From positions 31,725-95,724 of the forward strand of contig JBBTSA010000010.1 of NCBI GenBank assembly GCA_038064895.1: a DNA stretch of 64,000 bases, read 5' to 3'. Below are positions 17,556-55,935 of this stretch, in pieces. How positions within the stretch are numbered: position 1 is the first letter of the stretch; each line of letters starts with the position of its first letter. This stretch comes from Patescibacteria group bacterium (lineage in GTDB: Bacteria; Patescibacteriota; Microgenomatia; Daviesbacterales; UBA10151). Under the pieces are notes generated by a model. The model searched no databases. It saw only the letters and a list, made by a program, of their open reading frames with translations, and was not told the DNA's origin. Made by a program: the position numbers and the translations under genes.

Positions 17556-17591
17556 ACACACCCCAGGGGTGTGATAGGCTGACACCGTAGG
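17556..17591. repeat. Dispersed structured palindromic repeat, copy 1 (intergenic)
   Basis: CACACCCC-A-GGGGTGTG-ATAG-gct-GACACCGTAG, the same core as at 25212, 42536 and 55440. Confidence 0.7.
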
Positions 17592-17599
17592 ATTTGGTG

Positions 17600-17671
17600 A
17601 GCCAACGGTGAGAGTTGAACTCACGACCTTTCCCTTACGAAGGGACTGCTCTACCACTGAGCTACGTTGGC
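17600..17671 (-). tRNA. tRNA-Thr (anticodon CGT)
   Basis: GCCAACG-TA-GCTC-AGTGGTA-GAGC-A-GTCCC-TTCGTAA-GGGAA-AGGTC-GTGAG-TTCAACT-CTCAC-CGTTGGC-T. 72 nt, CCA not encoded. Confidence 0.8.
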
Positions 17672-17683
17672 ATTACTTTTCCT

Positions 17684-17777
17684 GGGTTGCTTTATTTATT
17701 TTGTGGTAATTCTTTAAGGTAAGCAACCCGTTTAAATGTCATTTAGACATTTAAACCCACTAAGCTACACCGGCCCG
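17684..17777 (-). other. Two tandem hairpins (9-bp stem with a 28-nt loop; 10-bp stem with a 5-nt loop) followed by a 22-nt tRNA 5'-end-like fragment
   Basis: Inverted repeats GGGTTGCTT/AAGCAACCC and TTTAAATGTC/GACATTTAAA. Minus-strand GGGCCGGTGTAGCTTAGTGGG resembles a tRNA acceptor plus D arm, but no complete cloverleaf could be folded. Confidence 0.35.
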
Positions 17778-17813
17778 TACATATTTTCCCATATTTTATG
17801 TTAAAATTCCTAT

Positions 17814-18146
17814 ATGAATTTAACAAAAAAACATTGTGTGCCTTGTGAAGGAGGGATCGATCCCTATACTAAGAGAGAAGCTGAAGAATATTTAAAGGCT
17901 GTAGAGGGATGGTATCTTGTGGATGAACAACCAATGAAACTACAAAGAAAATTTACATTTAAGGATTTCAAAGAAGCTATGGTTTTTGTAAATAAAGTTG
18001 CGGATTTGGCAAATTCGGAAGATCACCATCCAAATATAAATATTCACAGCTACAAAAAAGTTGATATAACTTTATATACTCATGCCATTGAAGGCCTTTC
18101 AGAAAATGACTATATAATAGCAGCTAAAATAAACCAACTAATGTGA
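17814..18146 (+). CDS. phhB: Pterin-4a-carbinolamine dehydratase (PCD/DCoH)
   Basis: SEDHHPNINIHSYKKVDITLYTHAIEGLSENDY matches the PCD signature [E]-x3-HHP-x5-[YW]-...-H-x3-GL[ST]. The product is 110 aa. Confidence 0.8.
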   Translation: MNLTKKHCVPCEGGIDPYTKREAEEYLKAVEGWYLVDEQPMKLQRKFTFKDFKEAMVFVNKVADLANSEDHHPNINIHSYKKVDITLYTHAIEGLSENDYIIAAKINQLM

Positions 18147-18249
18147 GCAGATATATCATATCGCTCGAACTTATTTTAGCAAAAACTTTTAATCGACGCA
18201 TTTTATTCTCGGCGGGTAGACAATCCCTGAAAACTCTTAACACCCAGAT

Positions 18250-18278
18250 TTGAAACTATAGGACTTTTATGGTAAAAT
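18250..18278 (+). promoter_or_regulatory. Putative promoter for the four-gene operon. The -10 element ends 7 nt before the ATG, so the transcript may be leaderless.
   Basis: TTGAAA (18250-18255), then 17 nt, then TAAAAT (18273-18278). Start codon at 18286. Confidence 0.35.
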
Positions 18279-18285
18279 ACTAGGT

Positions 18286-26730: not shown

Positions 26731-27468
26731 ATGGCTTACAGAACAAGGTCTGCAAGAAGGCTGGCTAGAAAAAGTAAAAGAAATTTTATAATTACCCTTA
26801 TCTTAATAGGATTTTTAATCTATGCTACACTGCAGTGGATCCTTCCAACCTTAATAACAGGACTCGGGTTTGTCACAAGCTTTGTCAAACCTTCCCCAAA
26901 AAAGACATACACAACTGAAAATTTCTCCCTGGCACCACCTGTGTTAAACATCCCCTATGAAGCAACTAATACTGCCCAAATTAATATAAGCGGATATGGC
27001 ACCCCAGATTCTAAGGTTTCCATTTACATTGATGATGAAAAAAAAGATACCACAGAGGTTTCTCCGGACGGTACTTTCGAGATAAAAAATGTGTCTTTAG
27101 TCCTAGGAACAAATAGTATATATGGAAAAAGTATTGACCCCGATTTTATCGGGGTTGATGAAAATGAAAAAGAAAGTCTACCTTCAAAAGTTATAAAAGT
27201 AATTTATGATAGTGAAAAACCCCTTCTTGAAATAAGTGAACCGGAAGACGGGAAGATACAACAAGGAGAAAAAAAGGTAAAAATTTCTGGAAGGACTGAA
27301 TCTCAAGCTAAAGTTTCGGTAAATGACAGTCAAGTTGTAGTAGGATCCGACGGAATATTTAATATTCAGTTGCAACTGAACGACGGTGAAAATGTTTTAA
27401 ATATAAAGGCACAAGATTTGGCAGGAAATTCTCAAGAAATCTCAAGAAGAGTAGTTTTTAATCCTTAA
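26731..27468 (+). CDS. Membrane-anchored protein with bacterial Ig-like (Big) domains. The likely start is M22 of the listed ORF.
   Basis: MAYRTRSARRLARKSKR, then a TM helix, then beta-rich domains ending ISGRTESQAKVSVNDSQVVVGSDGIFNIQLQLNDGENVLNIKAQDLAGNSQ (Ig-like). Confidence 0.55.
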   Translation: MAYRTRSARRLARKSKRNFIITLILIGFLIYATLQWILPTLITGLGFVTSFVKPSPKKTYTTENFSLAPPVLNIPYEATNTAQINISGYGTPDSKVSIYIDDEKKDTTEVSPDGTFEIKNVSLVLGTNSIYGKSIDPDFIGVDENEKESLPSKVIKVIYDSEKPLLEISEPEDGKIQQGEKKVKISGRTESQAKVSVNDSQVVVGSDGIFNIQLQLNDGENVLNIKAQDLAGNSQEISRRVVFNP

Positions 27469-33779: not shown

Positions 33780-34835
33780 CTACATTTTCTTTCTGTACTT
33801 TGCAACAGATGCTACAAAGCCTAAGGCTAGTAAAGTTGCAATAAGTGAAGATCCGCCATATGAAATTAGAGGAAGCGTAATGCCCGTTATTGGTAAAACT
33901 CCAACATTCATTCCAATATTAACAACGGTTTGAAAAAGAAGCATCGCTACAACTCCCAGGATTATTAGGTAACCAAAACGGTCATAAGCGCTTGCTGCAA
34001 TCTTCATACAGAAACTAAGCAAGAAAAGATATATTGATAGAATTAAGGTTGATCCTAAAAATCCCAACTCTTCTGCAATAGCGGCAAAAATAAAATCTGT
34101 TCTGAATTCGGGTAAAAATTGGAGTCTGGATTGGGTTCCGCGGCCTAATCCTCTTCCCAGCAGTTGCCCAGAACCAATGGCGATTTGAGACTGGATTAAA
34201 TTATACCCTCTACCTAAAGGGTCTGACTGCGGATCTAAAAATCCTGTTATTCTTTCTTTTTGATAATCTTTTAATGAAAAAATACCCGGAGGTGTAACTA
34301 CTATAAGAAATAGCAAAATAACTAAAGTCTTTTTAAAAGAAATGCCTGATGCAAAAAGCATTGTTGCCCAGATAGCCATGATAGTAAGTGTGGAACCTAA
34401 ATCAGGCTGCTTAAAAATCAGAAAAATAAAAGGAAGCGTCCAAAGTAGACTTTTAAGGATATTCCCCGTGTTAGGAGAGTTCATGGTCCAAAATTGTGCT
34501 AGAAAAAGAATAAGAGCAGGCTTTGCAAATTCTGAAGGCTGAATATTAATAATGCCTAAAGGTATCCATCTTAAAACTCCTCTTGTTTCAATACCTAAAA
34601 ACAAAACAATCAATAAAAGTAAAATTACAGAAATATAAAAAGGTAAAATAAAATTTTTTATGGAACGGTAATCAAATTGTGAGGTAAAAAGATAAATCAA
34701 AAGGCCAAAAAAAGCAAATATTGCCTGTAAAATTGCAAGCTCCTTAGAGGAAGAATAAATTACTAAAATACCAACAGAAAGAAGAAGTATTACACAAATT
34801 GTAACTGGCCAATTAATTAATGAAAATAACTTCAC
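33780..34835 (-). CDS. SEDS-family glycosyltransferase (FtsW/RodA/SpoVE). It lies outside the dcw cluster and is probably RodA-like.
   Basis: About 10 TM helices. Conserved C-terminal region GSTLILSIYLFLLSFCMKIAASAYDRFGYLIILGVV...LPITGITLPLISYGGSSL. Confidence 0.8.
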   Translation of the reverse strand: MKLFSLINWPVTICVILLLSVGILVIYSSSKELAILQAIFAFFGLLIYLFTSQFDYRSIKNFILPFYISVILLLLIVLFLGIETRGVLRWIPLGIINIQPSEFAKPALILFLAQFWTMNSPNTGNILKSLLWTLPFIFLIFKQPDLGSTLTIMAIWATMLFASGISFKKTLVILLFLIVVTPPGIFSLKDYQKERITGFLDPQSDPLGRGYNLIQSQIAIGSGQLLGRGLGRGTQSRLQFLPEFRTDFIFAAIAEELGFLGSTLILSIYLFLLSFCMKIAASAYDRFGYLIILGVVAMLLFQTVVNIGMNVGVLPITGITLPLISYGGSSLIATLLALGFVASVAKYRKKM

Positions 34836-41990: not shown

Positions 41991-43088
41991 CTAATTCCCC
42001 AAAAGCACTGTTTCCAAAGCCAGTCTTTTTGCTGCATCCGGAATAATAACTTCTTTAGCCTTTTTAGCTTTATCTTTTAAATTAGGTAAATCGTCTAACA
42101 TAAGTCTTATGTTTTTTAACAAAGTATCAGCAGATAATTTTTTTTGAGGCAAAATTTTAACTAAACCCAAATTTTCAAAAAATTTGGCATTTTTATTTTG
42201 TTCATCTTTATAAAGATATGGTATGGGAACTACCAAAGCAGGTTTTCCTAGAAAGCTAAGTTCAGTTAAAGTATTTATTCCTGCCCTGGAAACTACCAAA
42301 TCGGCGTTAGATAGAACTTCTCCCCACTCCTCCCCTATCCATTTTTCAACACTATACTTTCCCTCTAATCCTTCTTTTCCTCCTAATCCTTTTAATCTTT
42401 CAAAATCTTTAAATTTGTTATCTCCTGTAACATGAATGATATTTGCTATCTTTGTTAGCTTATTCAGACATTCTTCTACAGTTTTATTAATAATATGTGA
42501 ACCCTGATTCCCCCCAGTAATAAGTATTGTCTTACGGTGTGAACGTAACACACCCCTGGGGTGTGCTAGCTTGACACCGTTCACAATCATACTACGGATT
42601 GGGTCGCCGGTTAAAAGAGTTTTGTCTGCAAAACCATCTCTTCTAAAAGAAAGTGCAATCTTATCTGCAAAAAAACTACTTATCTTATTTGCAAGACCAG
42701 ATACTAGAGTTTGTTCATGAACAATAATGGGGATTGAAAATAACCAAGCAGTAAAAACAGTAGGAACTGCCACATATCCTCCAAAAGATAAAACTACCTT
42801 AGGTTTTTCTGATAAAACAATTATGAGAGCTTGAATGAATCCTACCGGAATTTTTAGAAGAGAAAGAAGTGTATATGGTGTGAATTCCCTTTGGAGCCTA
42901 CCTGTAACAATAGGGATATATTTCACACCAAGTTTTGGTAAAACTTTTGATTCTGCAGAAGGAGAAGGATCACCTTCTTGGGTAGTTTTTCTTCCTACAT
43001 ATACAACATGGACATCAGGGTATTTTTTCAGCTCCTCAACTACCGCAACAGCAGGTGTAAAATGAGCTCCGGTAATAAGTATCTTCAT
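41991..43088 (-). CDS. murG: UDP-GlcNAc:undecaprenyl-PP-MurNAc-pentapeptide GlcNAc transferase MurG
   Basis: MKILITGAHFTPAVAV, ILITGGNQGSHIIN and VSRAGINTLTELSFLGKPALVVP are the GT28 motifs. It carries an in-frame copy of the dispersed palindromic repeat at 42536-42582. Confidence 0.9.
   Translation of the reverse strand: MKILITGAHFTPAVAVVEELKKYPDVHVVYVGRKTTQEGDPSPSAESKVLPKLGVKYIPIVTGRLQREFTPYTLLSLLKIPVGFIQALIIVLSEKPKVVLSFGGYVAVPTVFTAWLFSIPIIVHEQTLVSGLANKISSFFADKIALSFRRDGFADKTLLTGDPIRSMIVNGVKLAHPRGVLRSHRKTILITGGNQGSHIINKTVEECLNKLTKIANIIHVTGDNKFKDFERLKGLGGKEGLEGKYSVEKWIGEEWGEVLSNADLVVSRAGINTLTELSFLGKPALVVPIPYLYKDEQNKNAKFFENLGLVKILPQKKLSADTLLKNIRLMLDDLPNLKDKAKKAKEVIIPDAAKRLALETVLLGN
42536..42582. 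repeat. Dispersed structured palindromic repeat, copy 3, in frame inside murG
   Basis: GGTGTGA-acgta-ACACACCCC-T-GGGGTGTG-ctagctt-GACACCGTTCAC. It encodes VNGVKLAHPRGVLRSHRK in MurG. Confidence 0.7.
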
Positions 43089-43102: not shown

Positions 43103-44203
43103 TTATGCAGAGCTGTTTTGCTTGGAGATATTTAGAAGTATCCCAACAGCTGTTAAGTTGGCAACCAATGCCGAACCACCATAAGAAATAAAAGGTAAAG
43201 GTACACCAGTAAGAGGAAGCAGTGCCACCATTGAAGAAAGATTGATTACTGTTTGAACCCCCAACCAGGAGGTCAAACCAATTGCCAAAATTCTTCCAAA
43301 ATTATCACTGCACTGCTGCGAAATTTTTATACCCCTTAAAACTAAAATCGCAAACAAAATTACCAATGTTGCTCCTCCTAAAAATCCAAACTCTTCTCCT
43401 ACAACACCAAAGATAGAATCTGTTGTGACTTCAGGTATATATTCGAATTTTTGTCTGGAATGTCCTAATCCCAAACCAAGCAGTCCTCCAGACCCTAATG
43501 CGATTAGTACTTGAGAAATATGGTATGTAAACCCTTGGGTATCCTGGAATGGATCCAAAAATGCAAGTATTCTTTGAACCCTGTAGGGGGATGTAAATAT
43601 AAGTACCGAAATGGCTGCAAGAGATAAAGGCAGTGCAACCAAAAAATGCCAGATTGCCCCACCGGAAGCAAGGTATAAAATAGAAGAAGAAAAAACAAAA
43701 ATAATAGTTGACCCCAAGTCTCTTTGTAAAATGGCAGTTACTGCAGTCACCATGAAACAGAGAGTTAATAAGGGGAAAAATCTTGATCCTTTTGTAAATA
43801 CAGTAGACAGAAAAATTATACCCGTAAGTTTCATAAATTCTGCAGGCTGAAATGTAACAGGCCCCAGCTGTAACCAACGCTGTGCCCCACCGCCGGAAAA
43901 GCCAAAAGAGGGTATTAAAACTGCAAGCATTAATACAAAAGACCCCACTAAAGCGGGAGTAGAAAATTTCTTAAGTATTCTATAATCAATTTGACTAAAA
44001 AAAACCATTGACAAGATGCCGATACTTGCCCAAATTAACTGCTGTCTAATGTAGAAGTTGCTATCCCCGGCATCTCGTAAGGCCTGTACCGGAGACACAT
44101 CATAAACCATTACCAAACCAAAACCTATCAAAATTAAAACCGTAACAAGAAGCGGTAGATCCATTGTATTTTTCTGTGACAGGTACTTTATGTTTTTAAT
44201 CAT
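43103..44203 (-). CDS. ftsW: SEDS-family lipid II flippase/polymerase FtsW (the dcw-cluster copy)
   Basis: Polytopic protein with the conserved region EFGFLGGATLVILFAILVLRG...PLTGVPLPFISYGGSAL. It lies between mraY and murG. Confidence 0.85.
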   Translation of the reverse strand: MIKNIKYLSQKNTMDLPLLVTVLILIGFGLVMVYDVSPVQALRDAGDSNFYIRQQLIWASIGILSMVFFSQIDYRILKKFSTPALVGSFVLMLAVLIPSFGFSGGGAQRWLQLGPVTFQPAEFMKLTGIIFLSTVFTKGSRFFPLLTLCFMVTAVTAILQRDLGSTIIFVFSSSILYLASGGAIWHFLVALPLSLAAISVLIFTSPYRVQRILAFLDPFQDTQGFTYHISQVLIALGSGGLLGLGLGHSRQKFEYIPEVTTDSIFGVVGEEFGFLGGATLVILFAILVLRGIKISQQCSDNFGRILAIGLTSWLGVQTVINLSSMVALLPLTGVPLPFISYGGSALVANLTAVGILLNISKQNSSA

Positions 44204-46419: not shown

Positions 46420-47682
46420 TCAGCTGCCCCTTTCAATATCTGCCCCAAGCTCTTTCAGCTTCGAAACCACACTTTCATACCCCCTCTCAATCAGTTCTGC
46501 TTGATTGATTACACTTTGTCCTTTTGCAGAAAGGGCTGCTAAAACCAAAGCCATTCCCGCTCTTATATCGGGAGTTGATAATCTTCTACCTTTAAATCTT
46601 GCAGGTCCCCAGACAAATACTCGGTGCGGATCTGCAAGAGTAATTCTAGCACCCATAGCAATCAGCTTGTCAATAAAAAACATCCTTGATTCATACATCC
46701 AGTCATGGCAAAGAGTGATCCCTTTAGATTGAGTTGCCAAAACTATTACAACACTCATCAAATCTGTGGGAAATCCCGGCCAAATATTTGTTGTAAGTTT
46801 GGGTATTGACTTAAGCCTTTTGGCGTATGCACTCAGGCTACCTCTAGCAACATCCACACTTATTCCGAATCTTTCCAGCTGTTTCAGGATTGGGCTTAAA
46901 TCAGTACCATCCAAACCTTTTATGGTAATTTTTCCGCCTGTTATCGCTGCAGCCACAATATATGTACCTACCTCCACATAATCAATACCTATTTTAAAAT
47001 GTGTCCCCTTTAATTTATCTACTCCTTGAATTGTTAGTGTATCGGTTCCAATACCGGTAATTCGACCTCCCATTTTTGAAAGCATGTTGCAAAGATCTAA
47101 AACATGAGGTTCTTTGGGACAATTTTTAATCGTTATTTTTCTTTTTCCCAAAACGGATGCCAAAATTATATTTTCCGTAGCACTGACTGATGCTTCGGGC
47201 AAGAATATAGTACAGTCCCTTTTTTCCTCGTGAGCATTTTTATAATGCAGATAGAATTTTAAATCCTTTTTTTTTAAATCCGCACCCAGTATTTTAAAAG
47301 CCTCAAGGTGAGTCTCTATACTTCTTTGACCTATCACATCTCCGCCAGGATGATAAAAATGTATTCTTCCCACTCTTCCTAAAATTGCCCCTACCAAAAC
47401 AATTGAACCTCTAAGTTTACCCATAAGCTCTTTTGGAAGGCTGACATGCTTAATGTGAGATGCCTTAATTTTTAATCTTTGGCCGGATCTTTCAGCGCTA
47501 ACACCCAAGTTTTTTAAAATTTGAATTAAACTTTGGGTATCTCCTATATCGGGCATATTTTCCAAAACTACTTCTGCATTTGTTAATAGGGCTGCACCTA
47601 CACAAGGAAAAATTGAGTTTTTATTTCCTGAAACTCGAATTTTACCACTTAATTTGTTTCCTCCTCTTATTACGTATTTCAT
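46420..47682 (-). CDS. murA: UDP-N-acetylglucosamine 1-carboxyvinyltransferase MurA
   Basis: MKYVIRGGNKLSGKIRVSGNKNSIFPCVGAALLT... with the EPSP-synthase fold. The catalytic-loop Cys region is present. Confidence 0.9.
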   Translation of the reverse strand: MKYVIRGGNKLSGKIRVSGNKNSIFPCVGAALLTNAEVVLENMPDIGDTQSLIQILKNLGVSAERSGQRLKIKASHIKHVSLPKELMGKLRGSIVLVGAILGRVGRIHFYHPGGDVIGQRSIETHLEAFKILGADLKKKDLKFYLHYKNAHEEKRDCTIFLPEASVSATENIILASVLGKRKITIKNCPKEPHVLDLCNMLSKMGGRITGIGTDTLTIQGVDKLKGTHFKIGIDYVEVGTYIVAAAITGGKITIKGLDGTDLSPILKQLERFGISVDVARGSLSAYAKRLKSIPKLTTNIWPGFPTDLMSVVIVLATQSKGITLCHDWMYESRMFFIDKLIAMGARITLADPHRVFVWGPARFKGRRLSTPDIRAGMALVLAALSAKGQSVINQAELIERGYESVVSKLKELGADIERGS

Positions 47683-47690
47683 AAAGTTTC

Positions 47691-48272
47691 CTATTTGGCA
47701 CTAAATTGAAAAACCACAGAAAGTACTATATGTTTTTTAAAGCTTATCTGCCTGGCTTCAATCTCCTCTACTTCGCACTCCAAGTTTAATACTTTAATAC
47801 TTTTTGCCTTACTTTGCAAAACTTGTGAGATAAAAATATTCCCTCCGATACTGCCGGGTATACCCGAAACTTCAACTTTTGATAACCCTTGAGAATCTAA
47901 ATACTCCAAAAGTTTGGTAATGCTTACCCCCGAATCTACCTCTATCAGTGCTTCCTCAATACCTATACCTATTTTTGATGCTTTACCTTTTATAGAAATA
48001 GTACTGATATTTTTTGTACGATTTTTTATGACTAATCCGTCAAAACCGTCATCCGAAATCATCATTTTGCTCCCCGTACCAAAAATAAAAAGGGGTACGT
48101 TAAGCTGCCTGCACATCGTAATTATTTTGATAAGTTCGAAAGTAGTAAAAGCTATAAAAAATAATTTGGCCGGGCCACCTACATTGAGAGCTGTATAATC
48201 CCTTATGTGCTCACCAAATTTAAATCTATCCTTACCGAAAGAGTCAACAATTAATTTAAATTTAGAATCCAT
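47691..48272 (-). CDS. murB: MurB-like protein truncated to the FAD-binding domain (193 aa, versus about 300 aa for canonical MurB)
   Basis: TALNVGGPAKLF...IFGTGSKMMISDDGFDGLVIK and GLSKVEVSGIPGSIGGNIF align to B. subtilis MurB residues about 25-150. No C-terminal substrate or catalytic domain is present, and the gene overlaps murE by 11 nt. Confidence 0.5.
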   Translation of the reverse strand: MDSKFKLIVDSFGKDRFKFGEHIRDYTALNVGGPAKLFFIAFTTFELIKIITMCRQLNVPLFIFGTGSKMMISDDGFDGLVIKNRTKNISTISIKGKASKIGIGIEEALIEVDSGVSITKLLEYLDSQGLSKVEVSGIPGSIGGNIFISQVLQSKAKSIKVLNLECEVEEIEARQISFKKHIVLSVVFQFSAK

Positions 48273-49470
48273 TCAGAGCGTCCTTTACAGCTTTTTTATC
48301 TGACCAGGGAATTTCCTTTTTCCCATCCATATTCATGGAAATTTCATGTCCTTTTCCAAAAATTCCCACAATATCCCTTTTTCGAGCAATTTTATTTATG
48401 GCAAAATCTATAGCTTTTTGTCTATCTTCTATAACAAAAAAATTGACATTTATTTTTGCACCAGCCTTTTTTGCGCCCTCTTTTATCTTTTTATTTATGC
48501 TATCCATTTGACCGCGCGGATCAACAGCTGTGACAATAACCACGTCAGACAACCTCTGGGCAATCTCCCCCATCATTGCTCTTTTTCCCACATCCCTATC
48601 TCCTTCACAGCCAATCAGAGAAATTATCCTCCCTCCTCCAGCAGGGGAGTGTAAAAACCTAAGTGCACTTTCAAGTCCATTTGGAGTATGAGCAAAATCA
48701 ATAAAAATTTTAATTCCTCTATCATTTTCCATTTCTTCCATCCTTCCTGGTAAGTTGTTAAAGTTTTCCAAAACACTGCGCGCTACCTCTTTTGGAATAT
48801 CTAAAATAAATGCCACGGCAAATGATGCAAGTGCATTCTCAATATTATACTGACCAAAAATTTTAAGTTTCAATTTAATTTCTTTTTGATTAAAATCCCC
48901 TTTATCTAAACCAAACGTAATCAATTTGTTGAACGATCGTCCAATCAATTGTGGTTTTAAGTTTTCATTGATTATGGAGAATTTAGTATTCTTTATAAGT
49001 TTTAATTTTGTATTTAAATAGTTTTCGAAGGTTTTATGATAATCTAGATGTTCATGGGTAACATTAGTTATCACACCTACTTCGCATTTAATACCAAAGA
49101 ATCTAAACTGATCTAAAGCATGAGAGGTTACTTCTAAAACCATGTACTCATCCCCCTTATCTAGCGCTTCTTTGGCAAATCTTTGTACCATAAAAGGATC
49201 CGGAGAAGTTACATGGAATCCGGTATCATAAGATTTTCCACCAACAAAGGCATTTATAGTTGAAACCATAGATACTTTCTTGCCGGCAGACTTTAAAATC
49301 TGGTAAATCATATTAACAGTTGTTGTTTTCCCATCAGTTCCTGTTACTCCAATAACTTTTAATCCCCTGGCAGGAAAGCCGTAATATATATTTGCCAAAA
49401 TTCCCTTTGGCAAGTGCCAGAAATTATTAATAAGCCATTGGGGTAAAAAAGAGCGGATTAGGTTTTTCAT
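48262..49470 (-). CDS. murE: Mur ligase, MurE-like (short form)
   Basis: GVTGTDGKTTT, IDFAHTPNGLESAL, GCEGDRDVGKR, GKGHE, VDPRG. Confidence 0.7.
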   Translation of the reverse strand: MKNLIRSFLPQWLINNFWHLPKGILANIYYGFPARGLKVIGVTGTDGKTTTVNMIYQILKSAGKKVSMVSTINAFVGGKSYDTGFHVTSPDPFMVQRFAKEALDKGDEYMVLEVTSHALDQFRFFGIKCEVGVITNVTHEHLDYHKTFENYLNTKLKLIKNTKFSIINENLKPQLIGRSFNKLITFGLDKGDFNQKEIKLKLKIFGQYNIENALASFAVAFILDIPKEVARSVLENFNNLPGRMEEMENDRGIKIFIDFAHTPNGLESALRFLHSPAGGGRIISLIGCEGDRDVGKRAMMGEIAQRLSDVVIVTAVDPRGQMDSINKKIKEGAKKAGAKINVNFFVIEDRQKAIDFAINKIARKRDIVGIFGKGHEISMNMDGKKEIPWSDKKAVKDALNGF

Positions 49471-49492
49471 TGAAGCTAATTATATATCAAAT

Positions 49493-51193
49493 CTACATCG
49501 GAGCAATTTTGTAGTAGTTAAAAAGTTGCTTTGCTATTTCAAAAAATGTTGGAGCTGCAGTCTCCGAACCATAGATCGAGCTTGACGGTTGATCATATCG
49601 CACTAAAATTACAAACTTAGGATCATCTGCCGGTGCAAATCCTACAAATGAAGCGATGGTTTTATTCGGATCGTAATGACCGGCCACAGGAATTTGGGCA
49701 GTGCCGGTTTTTCCCGCAATCTTAAATCCTTTTGGTTTTGCCCATTTGGCCTCACCCTCACTCACTGCTGTCACCATCATTTCTGTAATAATCTTGGAGG
49801 TGGACTCCTTTATAACCTGTCTTACAACTTTTGGTTTTATCTCAAAAGTTCCCTTATCATCTTTGATCAATCTAACAACATGCGGTTCTAAAAGATACCC
49901 TCCATTGGCAATTGCGGAAACTGCCACAACCATCTGAATTGGAGTCATAGCAATCCCTTGCCCAAAAGATGAAGTAGCAAGATCTATTTCACTCCAATTA
50001 TCCCTCGGACGAAGAGAGGGTGCTGATTCATCCTGCAAATCAATATTCGCAGTCTCACCTAAACCAAAGTTTCGGAGATATTCATAAAACTTATCCGGCC
50101 CTAGTTTAAGACCTGTAAATACCATTCCGGTATTATCAGAATGAATGATTATATCTTTTATAGTAGTGTCCGGATAATATTTATTATTCCAGGTTCTTAT
50201 TGAAAAACCTCCAAGCTGCAGTGGTCCTCCGCAGATATCACATCTTGTGTCTGGTTTCACAACATCCTCATTTATAGCAGCAGACATAACAAGGACTTTA
50301 AATGTTGATCCGGGCTCATATTGATCAGCTACAATCGGGTTTTTGTAATATTCCTTAGGGAAATTAGAATACTTTAAGGGATCATAGTTTGGGAAGGCTG
50401 CCAACGCCAAAATTCCTCCAGTCTTTGGATCCATTACAATGCTGGATGCGGCCTTTGCCCCATATTTTTCAATCCCCCGCCTTAAAGCTTGCTCTACAAT
50501 AAATTGTACACTGCGATCCAAATTTAGAGTCAAATCCTTACCGTTTTTGGCCCCTTGAGTTTGGAATCTCCCAATCAAGATAGGAACGCCTATTGCATCC
50601 CTTTCCAGCTTCAACTCCCCTGACACACCTTTAAGCTCGCCCTCATAGAATCCTTCTAAACCGAAATAGCCTACATCTTCCCCTTTTGCATCCGACCCGA
50701 CAAATCCTAAAAGATGAGCACTGGAGGATCCTTCCGGATAAAATCTTTTACTTGTTTGTTCGAATCCAATACCTGAAAGATTCAGTTTATCAATTTTGCT
50801 CTTAGTCTCCAAACTTACGCTTTTTTCAAGTAAAACCCAGTGCAAAGGCTGCGATAGTTTGGTTAAAATATCCTTGGCTAAACTATCTACCTCACTTTCC
50901 TTCTCCTCCGTCAGTACCTTTGCTATAGTATAAGAAAGGTCAAGCTTTGAACTTAAGGGTATTGCTTTTGGTAATCCATACATTCTAAAGGTTGGATTTG
51001 AAGAAGCTAAAAGATATCCATCAGAATAAAAGATATTACCTCGTAATGCACCTACCTTAGCCTCTAAAAGATATTGCCCTTCGGCTTGAGCCGCAAGATA
51101 CTCACCTCGCAGAATCTGCCAATAAAAAAGACGCGATATGATTGCGAAAAATAATATAAGAAATAAAATTTTTATAAAATATATCCGTGTCAC
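49493..51193 (-). CDS. ftsI: Class B penicillin-binding protein / transpeptidase FtsI
   Basis: SxxK (GSTFK), SxN (SDN) and KTG (KTGTAQ) motifs. N-terminal TM anchor. Position in the dcw cluster. Confidence 0.85.
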   Translation of the reverse strand: MTRIYFIKILFLILFFAIISRLFYWQILRGEYLAAQAEGQYLLEAKVGALRGNIFYSDGYLLASSNPTFRMYGLPKAIPLSSKLDLSYTIAKVLTEEKESEVDSLAKDILTKLSQPLHWVLLEKSVSLETKSKIDKLNLSGIGFEQTSKRFYPEGSSSAHLLGFVGSDAKGEDVGYFGLEGFYEGELKGVSGELKLERDAIGVPILIGRFQTQGAKNGKDLTLNLDRSVQFIVEQALRRGIEKYGAKAASSIVMDPKTGGILALAAFPNYDPLKYSNFPKEYYKNPIVADQYEPGSTFKVLVMSAAINEDVVKPDTRCDICGGPLQLGGFSIRTWNNKYYPDTTIKDIIIHSDNTGMVFTGLKLGPDKFYEYLRNFGLGETANIDLQDESAPSLRPRDNWSEIDLATSSFGQGIAMTPIQMVVAVSAIANGGYLLEPHVVRLIKDDKGTFEIKPKVVRQVIKESTSKIITEMMVTAVSEGEAKWAKPKGFKIAGKTGTAQIPVAGHYDPNKTIASFVGFAPADDPKFVILVRYDQPSSSIYGSETAAPTFFEIAKQLFNYYKIAPM

Positions 51194-51489
51194 CGAATAT
51201 ATTGTATACTTTGAGGAGGGGAAAAACCAAGTTCAGCAGACTTTGAGGAAATACTAAAAAGGGATGAATGTTTAGCAATCTCACTCCTAAGCATCTGATT
51301 CTCCATTTCTAACACTTTCTCCAAAGCTGCCATTTTTTCAAATTTCGAACCATATTCAACAGTAGTATTGCTTAGCCAAATTTCTATCAAAACCAAAATT
51401 AACAAAAATAAACTCACGACCCCTACCAAGAATCTGGGGAATTTTGGCTTTACTCCATTTTTTGTGTCAAATTTCTTAACTATTGTCAT
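51190..51489 (-). CDS. ftsL: FtsL-like small bitopic division protein
   Basis: 99 aa with a TM helix and coiled-coil (EKMAALEKVLEMENQMLRSEIAKH). It lies between rsmH and ftsI. Confidence 0.5.
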   Translation of the reverse strand: MTIVKKFDTKNGVKPKFPRFLVGVVSLFLLILVLIEIWLSNTTVEYGSKFEKMAALEKVLEMENQMLRSEIAKHSSLFSISSKSAELGFSPPQSIQYIR

Positions 51490-52385
51490 AATATTTCAAA
51501 AACTCTCATCTTGGCTGATCGGGATCTCGGATTATCGCTAACTTCTTCTAAACCGGGCCTGATTGGCTTTTTGGTTAAAACCCTGCCCAATCCTTCAGCC
51601 TCCCATGCCTTAAAAGTATTCTTAACGATCCTATCCTCAAGTGAGTTAAAGCTAATAAGTACAATGTGACCATAATTTTCTATTAGATCGTTTACTTCCT
51701 CCAATCCTGTCTCTAAAGCGTTGAGCTCATCATTGACTGCAATCCTTAAAGCCTGAAACACTTTGGTAGCAGGATGAATCTTCCTTTTCCTGATACCATG
51801 TTTTCTGTACACTTTCTCTACCAGTCCTGCCAAATCTCTGGTGCTCAAACCTACTTTACGGGCGAGCACCAAAGCGTCAGCCACGGCACGAGAATATTTT
51901 TCTTCACCCAAACCATCAAAAAGTTCATCTAACTCCTTTCTTCCGCCGACATTTATAAGATCCAAAGCACAAACTTCTAGCGCAGGATCCATCCTCATAT
52001 CCAAAGGTCCCTCCTTTACAAAAGAAAAACCCCTTTCAGGGCTTTCAAGTTGCAAACTGGAAACCCCAAGATCAAAAATTGCGCCTGCAAAGCCTGATCT
52101 TTGAATGTCCGTCTTCTGCTTAAGTAAATTTTTAATGTCCCTGAAATTACCCTGTACTAAAATAAAATCTTCCTGTTGTCTGTAGCCTGCTGCCTGTAAC
52201 CTCTTCTCAGCTCTTTCCAAAGCCTCTGGATCAACATCTATGCCTACTACCTTTCCACCCAATCTTAATATTTCTAAAGAGTGTCCCCCATCGCCTAGTG
52301 TACAATCCAAATACCACTTTCCACTCCTTATCCCCAAACCATCCATTACCTCCCGCAGAAGAACGGGACTATGATATCCTTCCAT
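51486..52385 (-). CDS. rsmH: 16S rRNA (cytosine1402-N4)-methyltransferase RsmH (MraW)
   Basis: HSPVLLREVMDGLGIRSGKWYLDCTLGDGGHS is the canonical RsmH N-terminus. Confidence 0.9.
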   Translation of the reverse strand: MEGYHSPVLLREVMDGLGIRSGKWYLDCTLGDGGHSLEILRLGGKVVGIDVDPEALERAEKRLQAAGYRQQEDFILVQGNFRDIKNLLKQKTDIQRSGFAGAIFDLGVSSLQLESPERGFSFVKEGPLDMRMDPALEVCALDLINVGGRKELDELFDGLGEEKYSRAVADALVLARKVGLSTRDLAGLVEKVYRKHGIRKRKIHPATKVFQALRIAVNDELNALETGLEEVNDLIENYGHIVLISFNSLEDRIVKNTFKAWEAEGLGRVLTKKPIRPGLEEVSDNPRSRSAKMRVFEIL

Positions 52386-52788
52386 AATCTCTTAAAATCT
52401 CCTTTAAATGCTTTTTCCAAATCCTTTTTGCCCAAATCTCAAAGTGGTCACCCGCACCTATTATTACAACTTCATTTACTAATTTAGCGTACGTCAGTAG
52501 GGCCGACGGAATTACAATCCTACCTTGACTATCAAACTCTACTGGCCCGCTTCCAGAAAACATGTATCTCCTTAAGATTCTAGCCCGTTCTTCTGTTGCC
52601 GAAATTTCAAGCTGCTTTTCCGCTTCCTTTTTCCAATCTCTTATATCAAATCCAAAAATACATCCTTCGAATCCACGGCTTAATATTATTTGAATACCTT
52701 TAATCTCTTGCCTAATCTTCCGGGGTAGAATTACTCTACCTTTGCCTGAAAACCTTGTTGTATATTCCCCCAAAAACATAGAGGACAT
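52369..52788 (-). CDS. mraZ: Transcriptional regulator MraZ
   Basis: MFLGEYTTRFSGKGRVILP...GRIVIPSAL carries the duplicated MraZ/SpoVT-AbrB motifs. It is the first gene of the dcw cluster. Confidence 0.85.
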   Translation of the reverse strand: MSSMFLGEYTTRFSGKGRVILPRKIRQEIKGIQIILSRGFEGCIFGFDIRDWKKEAEKQLEISATEERARILRRYMFSGSGPVEFDSQGRIVIPSALLTYAKLVNEVVIIGAGDHFEIWAKRIWKKHLKEILRDYGRIS

Positions 52789-53078
52789 CCTCTCTCTCTG
52801 GGCAGAATATTCATCCCGATTTAATCGGGATCACCTTAATTCACCATCTATAACCATTTTCCACCATCTTCATCTACATTGTCAAGGGGTATTTTAAATA
52901 GGAGCGAAGCCACAAGTAAACAAAAAAAGTTGAGGATTTTGTGCAGATATATCTAAATGTCTGTGAAGTTACTAAACCACAAAATTCTCACTAGTGAGCA
53001 AGTCTCTACCGTGCGAACGATTTTTTGTACTGTGGCGAGCGACTAATGTGACCAAGTGGTGCTTTTTGCCATGACGAG

Positions 53079-53960
53079 CTACTTTACCACTAGTACTGCA
53101 AAGATTCCAGCTCCATTTGCTTTTGCTGATAATTTAGATCCATCTACCTTTGTATCCAACTCCTCCCATTTACCTCCACCATACTTAAAAAGATTTGTAC
53201 CCTTCGGAGGATTTTCTGCAAGTTCCAAAGTTACATCCCCGGAAGGTAACTCCTTTGCAACTGGAATATTTAATGAGTAGACTTTCCCTAAAACCTCTCT
53301 TTCGGAAGGTAATTTCGGTACACCTGTCAGATCATTAATAATTGAAAAACCTATATTTGATAAAGCTGCTCTGTCTACACTGAATTTATACATAAGGTGT
53401 CCATCACCTGAAGATAAATTACCCAAAGCCACATCAGGTTTTTGTAAATGCCACTGGGTAATCATTCTATATGCTTTGTTCCCTTTTTTTATATGTAAAG
53501 TCAGCGTCCCATTCTCCACCCCTTTATCATATTTACAGACATTTTTGGAACATGTCCCAAACAAAATTTCCTGTTCATACTCACCCTTTTTATCCTTGGT
53601 ATCTATATTACCTGTAACCCCCCTGTCTATTGTCCCTAATCCCTCTCCCTCATCTTCCTTAATCTTACCTCCTTCTACGGAAACCTCTTCATTTTTAGAA
53701 GTGTAGGCTAATTCATAAGTGATGCTATCATACGAGGCTGTTCTTTTAAGATTTAAAATTAAGGCATTCCCGTCACGCCTTGGGTAAGCTAAAGCATATG
53801 GTCCTTCTGCATCAAATGCTAAATCAATTTCCTCAACTTCAGAAGGTTTAGAAATAAAGTTTTGAATCCCCAACCACCCCAACACCCCTAATAATCCTAA
53901 AATACCTATTAAAATGACAGTCACTCTGTGGACTGCCAAAAATTGTTTCAATCTTTCCAC
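53079..53960 (-). CDS. Hypothetical membrane-anchored extracytoplasmic protein
   Basis: N-terminal TM helix (VTVILIGILGLLGVLGWLGI) followed by a beta-rich domain. No recognisable motif. Confidence 0.45.
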   Translation of the reverse strand: MERLKQFLAVHRVTVILIGILGLLGVLGWLGIQNFISKPSEVEEIDLAFDAEGPYALAYPRRDGNALILNLKRTASYDSITYELAYTSKNEEVSVEGGKIKEDEGEGLGTIDRGVTGNIDTKDKKGEYEQEILFGTCSKNVCKYDKGVENGTLTLHIKKGNKAYRMITQWHLQKPDVALGNLSSGDGHLMYKFSVDRAALSNIGFSIINDLTGVPKLPSEREVLGKVYSLNIPVAKELPSGDVTLELAENPPKGTNLFKYGGGKWEELDTKVDGSKLSAKANGAGIFAVLVVK

Positions 53961-53962
53961 TA

Positions 53963-55285
53963 CTATTTAATCTTACCAGATAAATACTTGGCTAAGTCAA
54001 CTATCTTCACTCGAACTTGTTTTGTAGTATCTCTGTCTCTTACAGTCACATCTTTATCCTTAAGAGATTGGAAATCAACTGTTATACAAAAAGGTGTACC
54101 TGCTTCATCCTGGCTTGCATAACGTCCACCGATATTGCCTCGATCATCAAAGATAGCCATAAAATCCTTTTTTAAATCTTCATAAATCTCTTTTGCTTCC
54201 TTAACTAACTTAGGTTTGTTGGCAAGAAGCGGAAAAACAGCTACTTTTACAGGGGTAAGTTTTGGATGAAGTTTGAGTAAAACCCTCCCATTTTCTTCAG
54301 AGTATGCATCAATGAGAAAAAATAAAGCTGCCCTATCTACTCCTCCTGATGTTTCAATGACCCAGGGCAGAAATTCTTCACTCGAGTCTGGATCACGATA
54401 TTTCATGGTCTGACCGGAATACTCCTCATGCCTTGACAGGTCCCAATCACCTCTGTTGTGTATTCCTTCAAATTCAGACCAGCCGAAAGGAGCATGGTAT
54501 TCAATGTCGGTTGCAGCTTTGGCATAATGAGCCCTTTCATCATCCCTGTGATCTCTAAATCTTAGATTCTCTTTCTTTATTCCCAAATTTAAATACCAAT
54601 CCATCCTGACCTTTTTCCAATATTCAAACCATTTCTCCCCCTCCTGTTTTTCGGGTTTTACAAAAAATTGATTTTCCATCTGTTCAAATTCCCTAGACCT
54701 AAAAGTAAAATTCCCGGGAGTTATTTCATTTCTAAAAGCTTTTCCAATTTGTGCTATACCAAAAGGAATTTTAACTCTTGTAGAATCCAAAACATTTTTA
54801 AAATTAACATGAACTCCTTGAGTAATTTCTCCTCTAAGATAAACTTCGGATTGTCTATCTTCTAAAACTCCTAAATAGGCTTTAACTAGTAAATTAAACT
54901 TTCTCTCTTCCGTAAACTCATGTTTAAAAGTACCATCGCTGCATTTCTCTAATCCATCTTTTCCCTCTGGTCCTTCTATTTGATCTGCCCGGAACCTCTT
55001 ATGGCAAATCTTACACTCTACCAAAGGATCAGTGAAAGCCTCAACATGACCTGATGCTTCCCAAACTTTAGGGTTCATCATGATAGCAGCATCTACCCCA
55101 ACCATATCCTCACGCTTTTGTACCATTTCCTTCCACCACTCATTTTTTATATTTCTTTTAAGCTCTGTTCCCAATGGTCCATAATCCCATGTACCACCAA
55201 GCCCACCATAAATCTCAGACCCAGGATATATAAATCCCCTTCTTTTACAAAGAGCCACAATTTTGTCCATCAATTTTTTGTCCAT
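53963..55285 (-). CDS. glyQS: Glycine--tRNA ligase (dimeric class II type)
   Basis: MDKKLMDKIVALCKRRGFIYPGSEIYGGLGGTWDYGPLG is the hallmark GlyRS N-terminus. The class II motifs follow. Confidence 0.9.
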   Translation of the reverse strand: MDKKLMDKIVALCKRRGFIYPGSEIYGGLGGTWDYGPLGTELKRNIKNEWWKEMVQKREDMVGVDAAIMMNPKVWEASGHVEAFTDPLVECKICHKRFRADQIEGPEGKDGLEKCSDGTFKHEFTEERKFNLLVKAYLGVLEDRQSEVYLRGEITQGVHVNFKNVLDSTRVKIPFGIAQIGKAFRNEITPGNFTFRSREFEQMENQFFVKPEKQEGEKWFEYWKKVRMDWYLNLGIKKENLRFRDHRDDERAHYAKAATDIEYHAPFGWSEFEGIHNRGDWDLSRHEEYSGQTMKYRDPDSSEEFLPWVIETSGGVDRAALFFLIDAYSEENGRVLLKLHPKLTPVKVAVFPLLANKPKLVKEAKEIYEDLKKDFMAIFDDRGNIGGRYASQDEAGTPFCITVDFQSLKDKDVTVRDRDTTKQVRVKIVDLAKYLSGKIK

Positions 55286-55935
55286 TTTAAAAACTTTCTA
55301 CTTTTAAGTGACCCCTCTATCACTCTTTCTACATGATATCGTAATACTTTCTCCAGTTCCAGAGCCTCTTTTTCTTTGATTCCCATCTTCTCAATCTCAT
55401 CCCAGCTCATTTCTTCCAAATATCCCAGTAAACTCCTTAGGTGTGAGCCTATCACACCCCAGGGGTGTGATAGATAGACACCGTAGGGTTTAAAACTTAT
55501 AAAGCCTAAATTAGATAAGATTTTTGCTTCGAATGCCCTGACTAAAACCTGTCTTGGGTTTTTGGATAATCTTTTTAACACCTCTACCAGATGTTCATAT
55601 AAAATTCTGTTGTCCTGATTTTCAGCAGTTAATTTATCAACCAGCTCGATTATATGAAAAGCATAAGTGGATAATGTTAGATCAGATTTTATTTTTTCAA
55701 AATTTTCCAGAGATTCTGCTTCAGTTAAAACAGGCATTCCTTTCCCCTGGTACAAATACATAACCACTCTGTTAAGCAGTTCCACATTGCCAGCCCTCCT
55801 TGAAGTAATTCTTCTTACCCCCTTGGCTAAAACAACAATTTTCCCCCTCTGCAAACTAAATACTGTAAGGATTCTATCTGCCTCCCCAAAATTTCTTCTC
55901 TTTAAAATTATCCCTTCAGTCTTAAACCCTCTCAT
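55270..55935 (-). CDS. recO: DNA repair protein RecO
   Basis: GIILKRRNFGEADRILTVFSLQRGKIVVLAKGVRR is the RecO OB-fold N-terminus. It carries an in-frame copy of the palindromic repeat at 55440-55487. Confidence 0.75.
   Translation of the reverse strand: MRGFKTEGIILKRRNFGEADRILTVFSLQRGKIVVLAKGVRRITSRRAGNVELLNRVVMYLYQGKGMPVLTEAESLENFEKIKSDLTLSTYAFHIIELVDKLTAENQDNRILYEHLVEVLKRLSKNPRQVLVRAFEAKILSNLGFISFKPYGVYLSHPWGVIGSHLRSLLGYLEEMSWDEIEKMGIKEKEALELEKVLRYHVERVIEGSLKSRKFLKWTKN
55440..55487. repeat. Dispersed structured palindromic repeat, copy 4, in frame inside recO
   Basis: GGTGTGA-gcct-a-TCACACCCC-A-GGGGTGTGATAG-ata-GACACCGTAGG. It encodes KPYGVYLSHPWGVIGSHLR in RecO. Confidence 0.7.

Follow-up and report, generated by a model that had tools for sequence, protein, structure and literature searches.

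A short palindromic repeat of probable REP/REPIN type in a groundwater Patescibacteria genome, with two copies read in frame in MurG and RecO

Classical REPs occur in tens to hundreds of copies per genome, Rickettsia elements of the RPE-1 type are 100–150 bp long, and hairpin ends are the hallmark of the IS200/IS605 family. Systems of REP/REPIN with RAYT ('REPtrons') have been treated by Nunvar 2010, Bertels & Rainey 2011, Ton-Hoang 2012, Messing 2012 and Di Nocera 2013, and the Rickettsia palindromic elements, RPE-1 to RPE-8, by Ogata et al. 2000 and 2002. Di Nocera et al. 2013 (PMC3733652) described REPs inside genes, especially DNA-repair genes, classed RPE-4 and RPE-6 among the REPs, and showed REPs in contexts like those found here (gene-end spacers, a stop codon inside the element, in-frame copies). 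The groundwater Patescibacteria genome studied here contains a palindromic repeat of about 55 bases in four copies, two of which are read in frame, one in MurG and one in RecO. Because a RAYT-like Y1 gene in related contigs has these repeats on its flanks, the closest known kind is REP/REPIN with RAYT, and the four sequences probably belong to a REP/REPIN-like family with a RAYT-type Y1 partner in related genomes. The repeat is a known kind of element in a lineage without an earlier report of it; a preliminary description of this DNA had suggested as much, and the searchable literature held nothing to contradict "not described for this lineage" (Microgenomates/Patescibacteria).

The repeat and its copies in the window

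The core of the repeat in the window, the whole analysed stretch of 64,000 nucleotides, is CACAC(C/A)CC-N-GG(G/T)GTGTG-NTAG-NNN-GACACC. With up to three mismatches the core CACACCCCNGGGGTGTG is found at 17557, 25232 (2 mismatches), 42549 and 55453, compared to a mean of 0.04 matches in 100 shuffles, none of which reached four, and repeat finding puts all four copies into one family, D6. The copies that had been placed at 17556, 25212, 42536 and 55440 are thereby all confirmed (Table 1). A covariance model made from 17 full copies, and run over the whole window with filters off, found only these four, the next best match having E = 0.56, and it gave no new copy in the 10 kb on either side of the window.

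Table 1. Copies of the repeat in the window, the two host genes and the adjoining tRNA gene
Feature	Position	Strand	Description
Copy 1	17553..17597	+	truncated, left arm absent: inner hairpin CACACCCC-A-GGGGTGTG, then ATAG-GCT-GACACC-GTAGGATTT
tRNA-Thr(CGT)	17599..17671	-	3' end abuts copy 1
Copy 2	25212..25263	+	diverged; compensated A:T stem variant CACACACC-A-GGTGTGTG; additional CACAC direct repeats at left
MurG gene	41991..43088	-	GT28 N- and C-terminal domains (Pfam); host of copy 3, in interdomain linker
Copy 3	42534..42580	+	full palindrome ACGGTGTGA-ACGTAA-CACACCCC-T-GGGGTGTG-CTAGCTT-GACACCGT
RecO gene	55270..55935	-	Pfam; host of copy 4, where RecO_C match ends (residue 145)
Copy 4	55430..55493	+	full palindrome AAACTCC-TTA-GGTGTGA-GCCTAT-CACACCCC-A-GGGGTGTG-ATAGATA-GACACC-GTA-GGGTTT

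The full unit of about 55–60 nt is (AAATCC)-TNN-GGTGT[G/C]-N3-CTA-N-CACAC[C/A]CC-N-GG[G/T]GTGTG-N-TAG-N3-[G/T]ACACC-NNA-(GGATTT), with an 8-bp inner stem between two inverted half-sites and mostly one fixed G:G or C:C mismatch. The TAG 3' of the inner hairpin, after a variable base, is invariant. In the palindromic register 75% of the cells pair, compared to 34–48% after a shift of the partner columns by 1–3. Copies 3 and 4 form strong hairpins (-25 to -27 kcal/mol with z -3.5/-4.2, and -31 kcal/mol with z -6.5) and score 66 and 79.6 bits respectively in the covariance model. Copy 1, with a model match at 17535–17600 of 24–26 bits, is located between the stop codon of a TPR-protein ORF (17549, +) and the tRNA-Thr 3' end (17599, -). 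Copy 2 (29 bits, E 1e-5) is intergenic, with an ORF at 24583–25128 (+) on one side and a RhuM-family gene at 25337–26323 (+) on the other, and its right arm adjoins a hairpin with a T-run that resembles a terminator (25260–25273).

The family in other genomes and its in-frame copies

A strict pattern was found at seven loci in species-representative genomes, six of them labelled Patescibacteria (Gottesmanbacteria and Daviesbacteria included) and the seventh, L001, labelled Gammaproteobacteria and possibly mis-binned. A looser pattern gave 48 metagenome loci, mainly from groundwater, and 0 matches in the viral contigs searched. Including those of the window there are 47 unique copies, and the family, which had been described as dispersed and palindromic from the four copies, is dispersed among groundwater Microgenomates. 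The copy number is low, 4 in 84 kb here and 1–2 strict copies per species-representative genome; the further copies are found in related contigs. At the variable positions copies of the same genome are no more alike than copies of different genomes (0.50 vs 0.50, p = 0.53), and there is thus no sign of recent transposition bursts. At four loci of one related genome set (L015, L031, L051 and L044) a second, unrelated palindromic repeat follows the element, forming a mosaic.

Among the 47 copies, 11 are located between convergent genes, 15 between co-directional and 1 between divergent genes, 11 are in frame inside genes, and 9 are unclassifiable. Most of the copies outside coding frames adjoin gene 3' ends, the element often contains the stop of the adjacent ORF, and a T-run follows 24 of the 47. 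As judged by eye, the outer arm TAAGGA precedes the next start codon by 6–9 nt in five copies (L005, L018, L040, L043 and L032b). Besides MurG the in-frame hosts are RecO, RecG, UvrB, DinB, ATP-dependent DNA ligase, MurT and a membrane protein, and DNA-repair genes constitute five of the eight host families.

The element has one stop-free frame per strand, encoding GV[KNY][LV]xH[PT]xGV..[SR]H. Copies 3 and 4 share one reading frame relative to the element and have no stops in it, giving the peptides VNGVKLAHPRGVLRSHRK (MurG) and KPYGVYLSHPWGVIGSHLR (RecO) just as first described; the minus-strand translations are GVKLAHPRGVLRSHR at MurG residues about 171–186 and KPYGVYLSHPWGVIGSHLRS at RecO residues about 148–167. 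In the AlphaFold2 models MurG residues 162–183 form a coil that joins the two GT28 domains and has a pLDDT below 50, and RecO residues 143–160 are coil linking two helices. The models support the earlier placement of both peptides in predicted loop or linker regions, a low-confidence interdomain linker in MurG and a loop in RecO.

The same codon carries the element in five MurG and four RecO genes, with two RecO exceptions, one where the site is empty (L064) and one with a decayed copy (L065). Among the orthologue clusters, 120 for each gene, 16 of MurG and 9 of RecO keep the strict motif, and the RecO site is empty in 17 of the 120 orthologue clusters. The RecO orthologues show a complete decay series from intact over degenerate to empty, indicating that the element is dispensable at this site, which bears no evident target-site duplication. 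Where the residue is invariant, the codon identity amounts to 0.82/0.86 within the element vs 0.48/0.52 elsewhere in the gene (p = 4e-5), in orthologues that were picked for an intact peptide and are therefore enriched for young or well-kept copies. The conserved codons include GC-rich ones such as CCC, CAC and GGT, the genome having a GC content of about 37%, and the nucleotides are conserved beyond the needs of the protein. Codon conservation within the element far exceeds that elsewhere in the gene, and other RecO orthologues have decayed or empty sites; this is not the pattern of ordinary ancestral coding sequence and argues for maintenance at the level of the element. The preliminary description had held that a peptide shared among many orthologues with synonymous divergence would speak for an ancestral sequence; a minority do share the peptide at the same site, but without such synonymous divergence as is found elsewhere in the gene, and some RecO sites are empty.

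The conservation might also be due to selection by the host on a cis-acting hairpin, serving the cell as RNA or DNA, which we consider unlikely. Between genes the hairpin could be a terminator or 3'-end stabiliser of mRNA, and inside genes a site for pausing, processing or protein binding that might coordinate genes of DNA repair and of the cell wall, roles that are compatible with a RAYT origin. The GC-rich codons kept despite the low GC content, the 3'-end positions with T-runs and the TAAGGA arms before start codons agree with this, as does the lack of homogenisation within genomes, which fits old copies under constraint, and a bias towards DNA repair like that in the host families is found in REPs of other phyla (PMC3733652). 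However, covariation in the element alignment was not above the shuffled control, the variable stem pair is mismatched in 7 of the 17 full copies, the RecO copy can be lost, only a small part of the MurG and RecO clusters keep the strict motif, and the codon comparison is biased by the choice of orthologues.

The neighbouring RAYT-like gene and the proposed explanation

At three related loci (L032, L054 and L002) the element is located on both flanks of a gene for a 221-aa protein with a match to PF01797, Y1_Tnp (E 7e-12), at 21–40 nt from the gene, and the three proteins have a mutual identity of 48–62%. At L004 it is directly upstream of a fourth, partial Y1 homologue, and the distances across the four RAYT-like genes are 14–40 nt. 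The best NCBIfam match of the proteins is NF047646, REP-associated tyrosine transposase, with 44–55 bits, below the 80-bit equivalog cut-off, compared to at most 19 bits for IS200. A HUH motif (NHVH/NHFH) and a tyrosine motif YIHLNP align with E. coli TnpA(REP) (PDB 4er8), at a weak similarity (E 0.16). Because the element flanks this gene in related loci, we take it for a repeat of REP/REPIN kind whose partner is of RAYT type. No RAYT gene was found in the window by tblastn, nor do the genes called in the 10 kb on either side include one, in all 84 kb, and the link to the transposase thus rests on other genomes.

The short imperfect palindromes would fold as single-stranded hairpins, and a RAYT-type Y1 (HUH) enzyme may recognise the hairpin on single-stranded DNA and have spread or maintained the repeats. 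Such recognition and mobilisation is suggested by the adjacency together with what is known biochemically of E. coli TnpA(REP) and IS200/IS605, and the copies would be maintained by selection or by re-copying. In these very compact genomes the persisting copies would be the tolerated ones, at gene 3' ends, in short intergenic spacers and in protein loops. With a net length divisible by three (51 or 54 nt at the RecO site), a copy read in the stop-free frame is translated into a loop of 17–20 residues, as happens in the MurG linker and the RecO loop.

The preliminary description had likened the repeat to Rickettsia palindromic elements, and in its behaviour the likeness stands, with in-frame loop insertions in housekeeping proteins of a reduced genome and 84 kb of this genome without a transposase gene. 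An orphan selfish palindrome of that type would spread without a transposase of its own and its adjacency to RAYT genes would be incidental, for example if repeats tend to insert beside or into each other. There is little probability in this, as the element is close to four independent RAYT-like genes and flanks three on both sides; 4 of about 45 distinct loci adjoin a single gene family, making chance adjacency very unlikely, and two RAYT-proximal copies have their own variant, GGGGTGAT, in common. The original observation is confirmed and its interpretation, considering the closer kinship with REP/REPIN, partly supported.

We find it more doubtful still that the repeats are MITEs (PATEs) from an IS200/IS605 insertion sequence, in which the Y1 protein would be an IS transposase of the usual kind, with the repeats as its end hairpins. 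PF01797 is named 'Transposase IS200 like', hairpin ends are typical of that family, and the RecO site fits in having no evident target-site duplication, but the proteins score far better as REP-associated than as IS200 transposases and are longer than the matched solved IS200/IS605-family transposase chains (140–143 aa). No tnpB-like ORF adjoins the Y1 gene, whose neighbours are housekeeping or unknown, one short palindrome is present on both flanks instead of distinct left and right ends, and an identical multi-copy IS was not seen. An ancestral peptide module that serves the MurG and RecO proteins and is palindromic only incidentally in its DNA, in line with the identical position and peptide in a number of orthologues, is contradicted by the 36 of 47 copies in non-coding spacers, the unrelated host proteins, synonymous sites more and not less conserved than the flanks, some close orthologues wholly lacking the element and the low-confidence coil models, and is extremely improbable.

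Comparison with known systems

The mosaics with a second palindrome resemble the REP-plus-motif arrangement of enterobacterial BIMEs, but the partner motif is another, no IHF or gyrase sites are known, and the arrangement is absent from the window. With IS200/IS605 and PATEs the RAYT-type reading has in common a Y1 HUH transposase acting on single-stranded hairpins, non-autonomous derivatives that are little more than hairpins, and insertion without target-site duplication, whereas distinct ends, tnpB and a multi-copy autonomous element are absent here and the protein scores better as a RAYT. Like RPEs, the palindromes are found in frame in housekeeping ORFs of a reduced genome, in surface loops tolerated by the protein, with same-site conservation among related species; RPEs, however, have no associated transposase and come from an unrelated phylum, and at 45–60 bp the present palindromes are shorter than the RPE-1 type. 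From the REP/REPIN and RAYT systems the family differs in its host, Microgenomates/Patescibacteria, from which no report was found, in its low copy number, and in that about one fourth of the copies are intragenic. Compared to GTAG REPs the TAG is located 3' of the inner stem-loop after a variable base, with no 5' GTAG or CGTC tag, and the transposase is distant from curated RAYTs, by its bit scores, and not seen in the readable 84 kb of the window's genome. As in REP/REPIN systems, the units are short imperfect palindromes, single or as inverted doublets able to form one long hairpin, located within about 20–30 nt of gene 3' ends with convergent or co-directional neighbours and often supplying the stop codon, with occasional in-frame copies, notably in DNA-repair genes, the same repeats on both sides of a Y1/HUH transposase gene, and orthologous copies that persist in diverged genomes.

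The four copies in the window

All four palindromic sequences of the preliminary description were found at the sites it had claimed, and repeat finding placed them in one dispersed family (D6), as it had proposed. With up to three mismatches allowed, the core CACACCCCNGGGGTGTG matches at 17557, 25232, 42549 and 55453, compared to a mean of 0.04 matches in shuffled sequences, none of which gave four. The palindrome is complete in copies 3 and 4, with folding energies of -25 kcal/mol (z = -3.5) and -31 kcal/mol (z = -6.5) respectively, copy 1 is reduced to the inner hairpin and the right arm, and the stem of copy 2 is doubly changed (CACACACC/GGTGTGTG). A covariance model built on 17 full copies and run without filters detected no copy beyond these four in the window and no new copy in an extra 10 kb on either side, giving a density of 4 copies in 84 kb vs 0.04 expected. 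The intragenic share in the window (2/4) is unusually high. Rfam found four tRNAs only in the window and contains no family for the element, and intrinsic-terminator calling reported no element copy, the sole call near them being a separate small hairpin beside copy 2.

Several other features were noted in the window (see table). The 1725-aa ORF, for which the public gene call gave no Pfam match, is probably a large repetitive surface protein, the region with the RhuM-family gene and tRNA-Gly may be an island edge, and the two ORFs sharing the D9 stretch may be paralogous.

Coordinates of element copies, host genes and other features in the window, and of transposase genes in related loci (own numbering of each locus)
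Feature	Position	Strand	Context
Copy 1	17553		flanked by the stop codon of a TPR protein gene and the tRNA-Thr 3' end
Copy 2	25212		between an unknown ORF and the RhuM-family gene, beside a small terminator-like hairpin
Copy 3	42534-42580		in murG
Copy 4	55430-55493		in recO
MurG	41991-43088	-	GT28 N-terminal domain residues 6-145, C-terminal domain 187-356
RecO	55270-55935	-	hosts copy 4
1725-aa ORF	4353-9530	-	~270-nt internal repeats (families D1, D3, D5, D7)
D2 repeat	18286-20708	+	189-nt (63-codon) coding repeat GGxTATTGGAC..., present seven times across adjacent ORFs 18286-19605 and 19602-20708
1283-aa ORF	20729-24580		follows the D2 ORFs
RhuM-family gene	25337-26323	+	'virulence protein', directly downstream of copy 2
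tRNA-Gly(CCC)	26475-26548	-	within mechanical ORF 26320-26562
D9 stretch	34053-34123 and 43376-43446		71 nt, 79% identical; shared by ORF 33780-34835 and ORF 43103-44203, the latter upstream of murG
Transposase gene, L032	3384-4046		element copies 3341-3370 and 4061-4130
Transposase gene, L054	163-825		element copies 80-149 and 830-899
Transposase gene, L002	3008-3679		element copies 2931-3000 and 3700-3735
Transposase gene, L004	from 7790 (partial)		element copy 7710-7776 before it

Structure, spread and genomic contexts of the family

In species-representative genomes the strict pattern gave seven loci, six labelled Patescibacteria (including Gottesmanbacteria and Daviesbacteria) and one Gammaproteobacteria, with only 1–2 strict copies per genome. 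The looser pattern gave 48 metagenome loci, mostly from groundwater, and the window itself originates from well H51 of the Hainich aquifer; the viral contigs scanned with both patterns had no match. The locus labelled Gammaproteobacteria (L001, block at ~1650–1900) shares with L007 (reverse strand) a conserved block of about 150 nt downstream of the element, with TCTCACC repeats followed by ...CCTTGGTATCCTTACGGAAAAAACACCG...CTACCACAAG.ACGC.GTGG, which has no match in Rfam and may represent either an RNA not yet described or the conserved end of a gene. A Patescibacteria MAG has this block too, and L001 is probably mis-binned.

Removal of duplicates left 47 unique copies. The full unit of about 55–60 nt has the consensus (AAATCC)-TNN-GGTGT[G/C]-N3-CTA-N-CACAC[C/A]CC-N-GG[G/T]GTGTG-N-TAG-N3-[G/T]ACACC-NNA-(GGATTT), with an inner stem of 8 bp and a loop of 1–3 nt, and 75% of the cells pair in the palindromic register vs 34–48% when the partners are slid. 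Over 29 palindromic pairs no covariation was found above the shuffled control, and a G:G mismatch is fixed at one stem position in 13 of the 17 full copies, indicating that the palindrome is kept by conservation of the sequence motif and not by compensatory change. Alternation of A:T and C:G at stem position 6 is enriched over the 47 copies (36 paired, 11 mismatched), which are mutually related, and the full copies alone show no such enrichment. At variable positions the likeness is 0.50 within the same genome vs 0.50 between genomes (p = 0.53), thus homogenisation or a recent burst within a genome was not found by this measure, and as copies of one genome are not more alike, neither a recent burst nor concerted evolution is seen. 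In L010 (copies at 9435 and 10052, 617 nt apart) and L017 (copies at 3385 and 3934, 549 nt apart) each pair shares 30–60 nt of identical or near-identical right flank, and here the element is duplicated within a larger segment.

Classified by context, 11 of the 47 copies are flanked by convergent genes, 15 by co-directional and 1 by divergent genes, a further 11 are inside genes, and 9 could not be classified. The family is thus, like REPs (repetitive palindromes of this kind), mostly extragenic, near ORF 3' ends and rarely divergent (26/47 convergent or co-directional). The intergenic copies are usually located within 30 nt of a stop codon, at several loci the stop codon of the neighbouring gene is inside the element, and at some the outer arm TAAGGA is found, by eye, at Shine-Dalgarno distance before the next start codon. 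A sigma-70 -35 box (TTGACA, right arm), a CRP-like TGTGA-N-TCACA site, a DNA uptake sequence, an integron attC site and a LexA operator were considered and rejected because of spacing, density or the single divergent copy.

The 11 copies inside genes are in frame, in ORFs of at least 150 residues. Their hosts are DinB, RecG, ATP-dependent DNA ligase, MurT (in two lineages), UvrB, RecO, MurG and an unannotated membrane protein, and five of these eight families have DNA-repair functions, a host range based on 11 in-frame copies only. A protein search with a 48-column tandem profile of the element peptide gave no match at E <= 10.

Copies read in frame in MurG and RecO

Copies 3 and 4 are read without stops in the same element frame, giving the peptides GVKLAHPRGVLRSHRK in MurG and KPYGVYLSHPWGVIGSHLRS in RecO, which agrees with the preliminary description, and the peptides predicted from in-frame copies include GVYLSHPWGVIGSHLR and GVKLAHPR. 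Their suggested location in loop regions is supported by AlphaFold2 models, where MurG residues 162–183 form a coil in the interdomain linker with pLDDT below 50, and RecO residues 143–160 form a coil flanked by two helices. The RecO_C Pfam match in the window RecO spans only profile positions 2–64 of 157, and the element adjoins the end of this match. No CxxC pairs are visible in the window RecO and its orthologues (202–230 residues), and these Microgenomates RecO proteins seem to be without the zinc-finger region.

The strict motif is kept in 16 of the best 120 clusters for MurG. For RecO, the best 120 clusters include 9 with the strict motif and 17 with a short empty form, and the remainder mostly have a degenerate insert at the same place. 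Four MurG and five RecO orthologues, plus the RecO gene in the related locus L022, were compared as DNA, and the palindrome is located at the same codon. An empty RecO site, TTTAAACAG|GAACTA, is found in L064 and a decayed copy in L065. Pairwise codon identity at invariant residues is 0.82 inside vs 0.48 outside the element in MurG and 0.86 vs 0.52 in RecO (Mann-Whitney p = 4e-5, both genes combined), in orthologues picked for an intact peptide, a choice biased towards copies that are young or well preserved. Among the codons conserved are CCC, CAC and GGT, the GC content of the genome being about 37%. An ordinary ancestral peptide drifting at synonymous sites, the alternative raised in the preliminary description, is excluded by this codon identity, notwithstanding the way the orthologues were picked. 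Conservation of these copies at the nucleotide level may be due to a function or to re-copying. Opposite orientation of the element at the same orthologous site (window RecO vs L022, MurT of L050 vs L052, window MurG vs L058) was considered as a sign of independent insertions and dropped, because one polymorphic arm position (GGTGTG vs GGTGTC) sets the orientation, and because reverse-complementing L058 does not give the window copy.

In essential and repair proteins some copies of the element are retained in the form of translated loops. The Microgenomates, which belong to the candidate phyla radiation, have almost no intergenic space, and this compactness may be the reason that about one quarter of the copies have been preserved in this form in essential proteins. 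The inserts make indel variation look greater than it is in marker proteins, MurG and RecO among them, and can serve as lineage markers.

The transposase link and comparison with known systems

In the related locus L032 a 221-residue ORF, separated from the element by 40 nt, has a match to PF01797 (Y1_Tnp, E 7e-12). Homologues of this protein are present in L054 (62% identical, 30 nt from the element) and L002 (48% identical, 21 nt), and a partial one at the end of L004. In L032, L054 and L002 the gene has a copy of the element on either flank, in L004 one copy lies immediately upstream, and the variant GGGGTGAT is common to two transposase-proximal copies. For all three proteins the best NCBIfam model is NF047646 (REP-associated tyrosine transposase, RAYT) with 55, 52 and 44 bits vs at most 19 for IS200, all below the 80-bit cut-off. 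In the alignment with E. coli TnpA(REP) (PDB 4er8), MPNHVHFLL, which contains a His-hydrophobic-His (HUH) motif, is opposite LPEHMH, and RYIHLNPV, with the putative catalytic Tyr in a YIxxNP context, is opposite DYIYINPV, in keeping with a Y1 HUH enzyme. The REPtron arrangement, with the same repeats around a RAYT gene, is thus found in related loci and not in the window or its flanks; no transposase homologue is present in the window, and the gene calls for the flanking loci (10 kb on each side) list none. L054 derives from the same well (H51) as the window, and, as a suggestive detail, the copy upstream of its transposase gene has the terminal sequence GACACCGTAGG, found elsewhere only in window copies 1 and 4.

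In the Microgenomates the element probably forms a REP/REPIN-like family whose partner is of the RAYT type. It could also be read as conserved cis-acting hairpins, the in-frame copies in repair (RecO, RecG, UvrB, DinB, ligase) and wall (MurG, MurT) genes being coupled by a domesticated RAYT or another hairpin-binder to control at the ssDNA or RNA level in these ultra-small Patescibacteria. This is improbable, but if true it would explain the conservation of synonymous sites, the absent homogenisation within genomes and a repair-gene bias recurring in unrelated phyla. A MITE of the IS200/IS605 type (PATE), such elements deriving from the two ends (left and right) of an autonomous, multi-copy IS that often carries tnpB, fits poorly, as no tnpB-like neighbour was found and the same palindrome is present on both flanks; a repeated unit of transposase plus ends was not found in the related loci examined.

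REP units are imperfect palindromes of 20–40 bp that form a stem-loop, and inverted doublets form a larger hairpin. Classical REPs are present in tens to hundreds of copies per genome, and REP/RAYT systems are known chiefly from Proteobacteria and a few other phyla. The REP/REPIN-like family described here resembles them in anatomy, contexts and the link to a transposase, but differs in lineage, low copy number, high intragenic fraction and tag. Instead of the GTAG or CGTC tag the element has N-TAG 3' of the stem-loop, with the complement 5'-CTAN-stem; TAG was fixed in the search pattern and its constancy in the retrieved copies is therefore by design, while the preceding base, which was free, is G in only 11 of the 47, and no element copy has a CGTC tag. 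In L015, L031 (two places), L051 and L044 (sample Ga0180009) another palindromic repeat, which is unrelated to the element and reads TTCGATCCYGGA-N(~20)-TCCRGGATCGTGATTATCC, follows it within about 10–150 nt, and the two form a mosaic resembling a BIME; an Rfam scan of four related loci, L031 and L051 among them, gave nothing.

The preliminary description compared the element to the Rickettsia palindromic elements (RPE). The analogy is apt, both being in-frame palindromes in a reduced genome whose resemblance would be functional, but a REP/REPIN-like family with a RAYT-type partner is the sharper fit. The preliminary description knew of no such element in this lineage, and full-text literature searches gave no contrary report, nor any report of REP/RAYT systems in the candidate phyla radiation. 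RPE-4 and RPE-6 have been assigned to the CGTC REPs by Di Nocera, De Gregorio and Rocco (BMC Genomics 2013, PMC3733652), who found REPs between genes in convergent or co-directional orientation, at most 20 bp from an ORF 3' end and supplying TAG stop codons, and RAYT genes flanked by REPs (REPtrons) or other inverted repeats. RAYTs are mostly single-copy and vertically inherited, with abundant repeats alongside (Bertels et al. 2017, PMC5581495). Some REPs are wholly inside ORFs, 'many' of them in genes for DNA synthesis and repair (uvrA, uvrB, uvrD, polA, recBCD, dnaE2, ligase), and REP dimers encode 20–30 residues (Di Nocera et al. 2013, PMC3733652). This repair-gene bias of intragenic REPs, left unexplained there, recurs here in an unrelated phylum, with the added measured signal that the codons of the repeat are conserved well beyond the needs of the protein, and a Microgenomates family would extend REP/RAYT to the most reduced free-living bacterial genomes.
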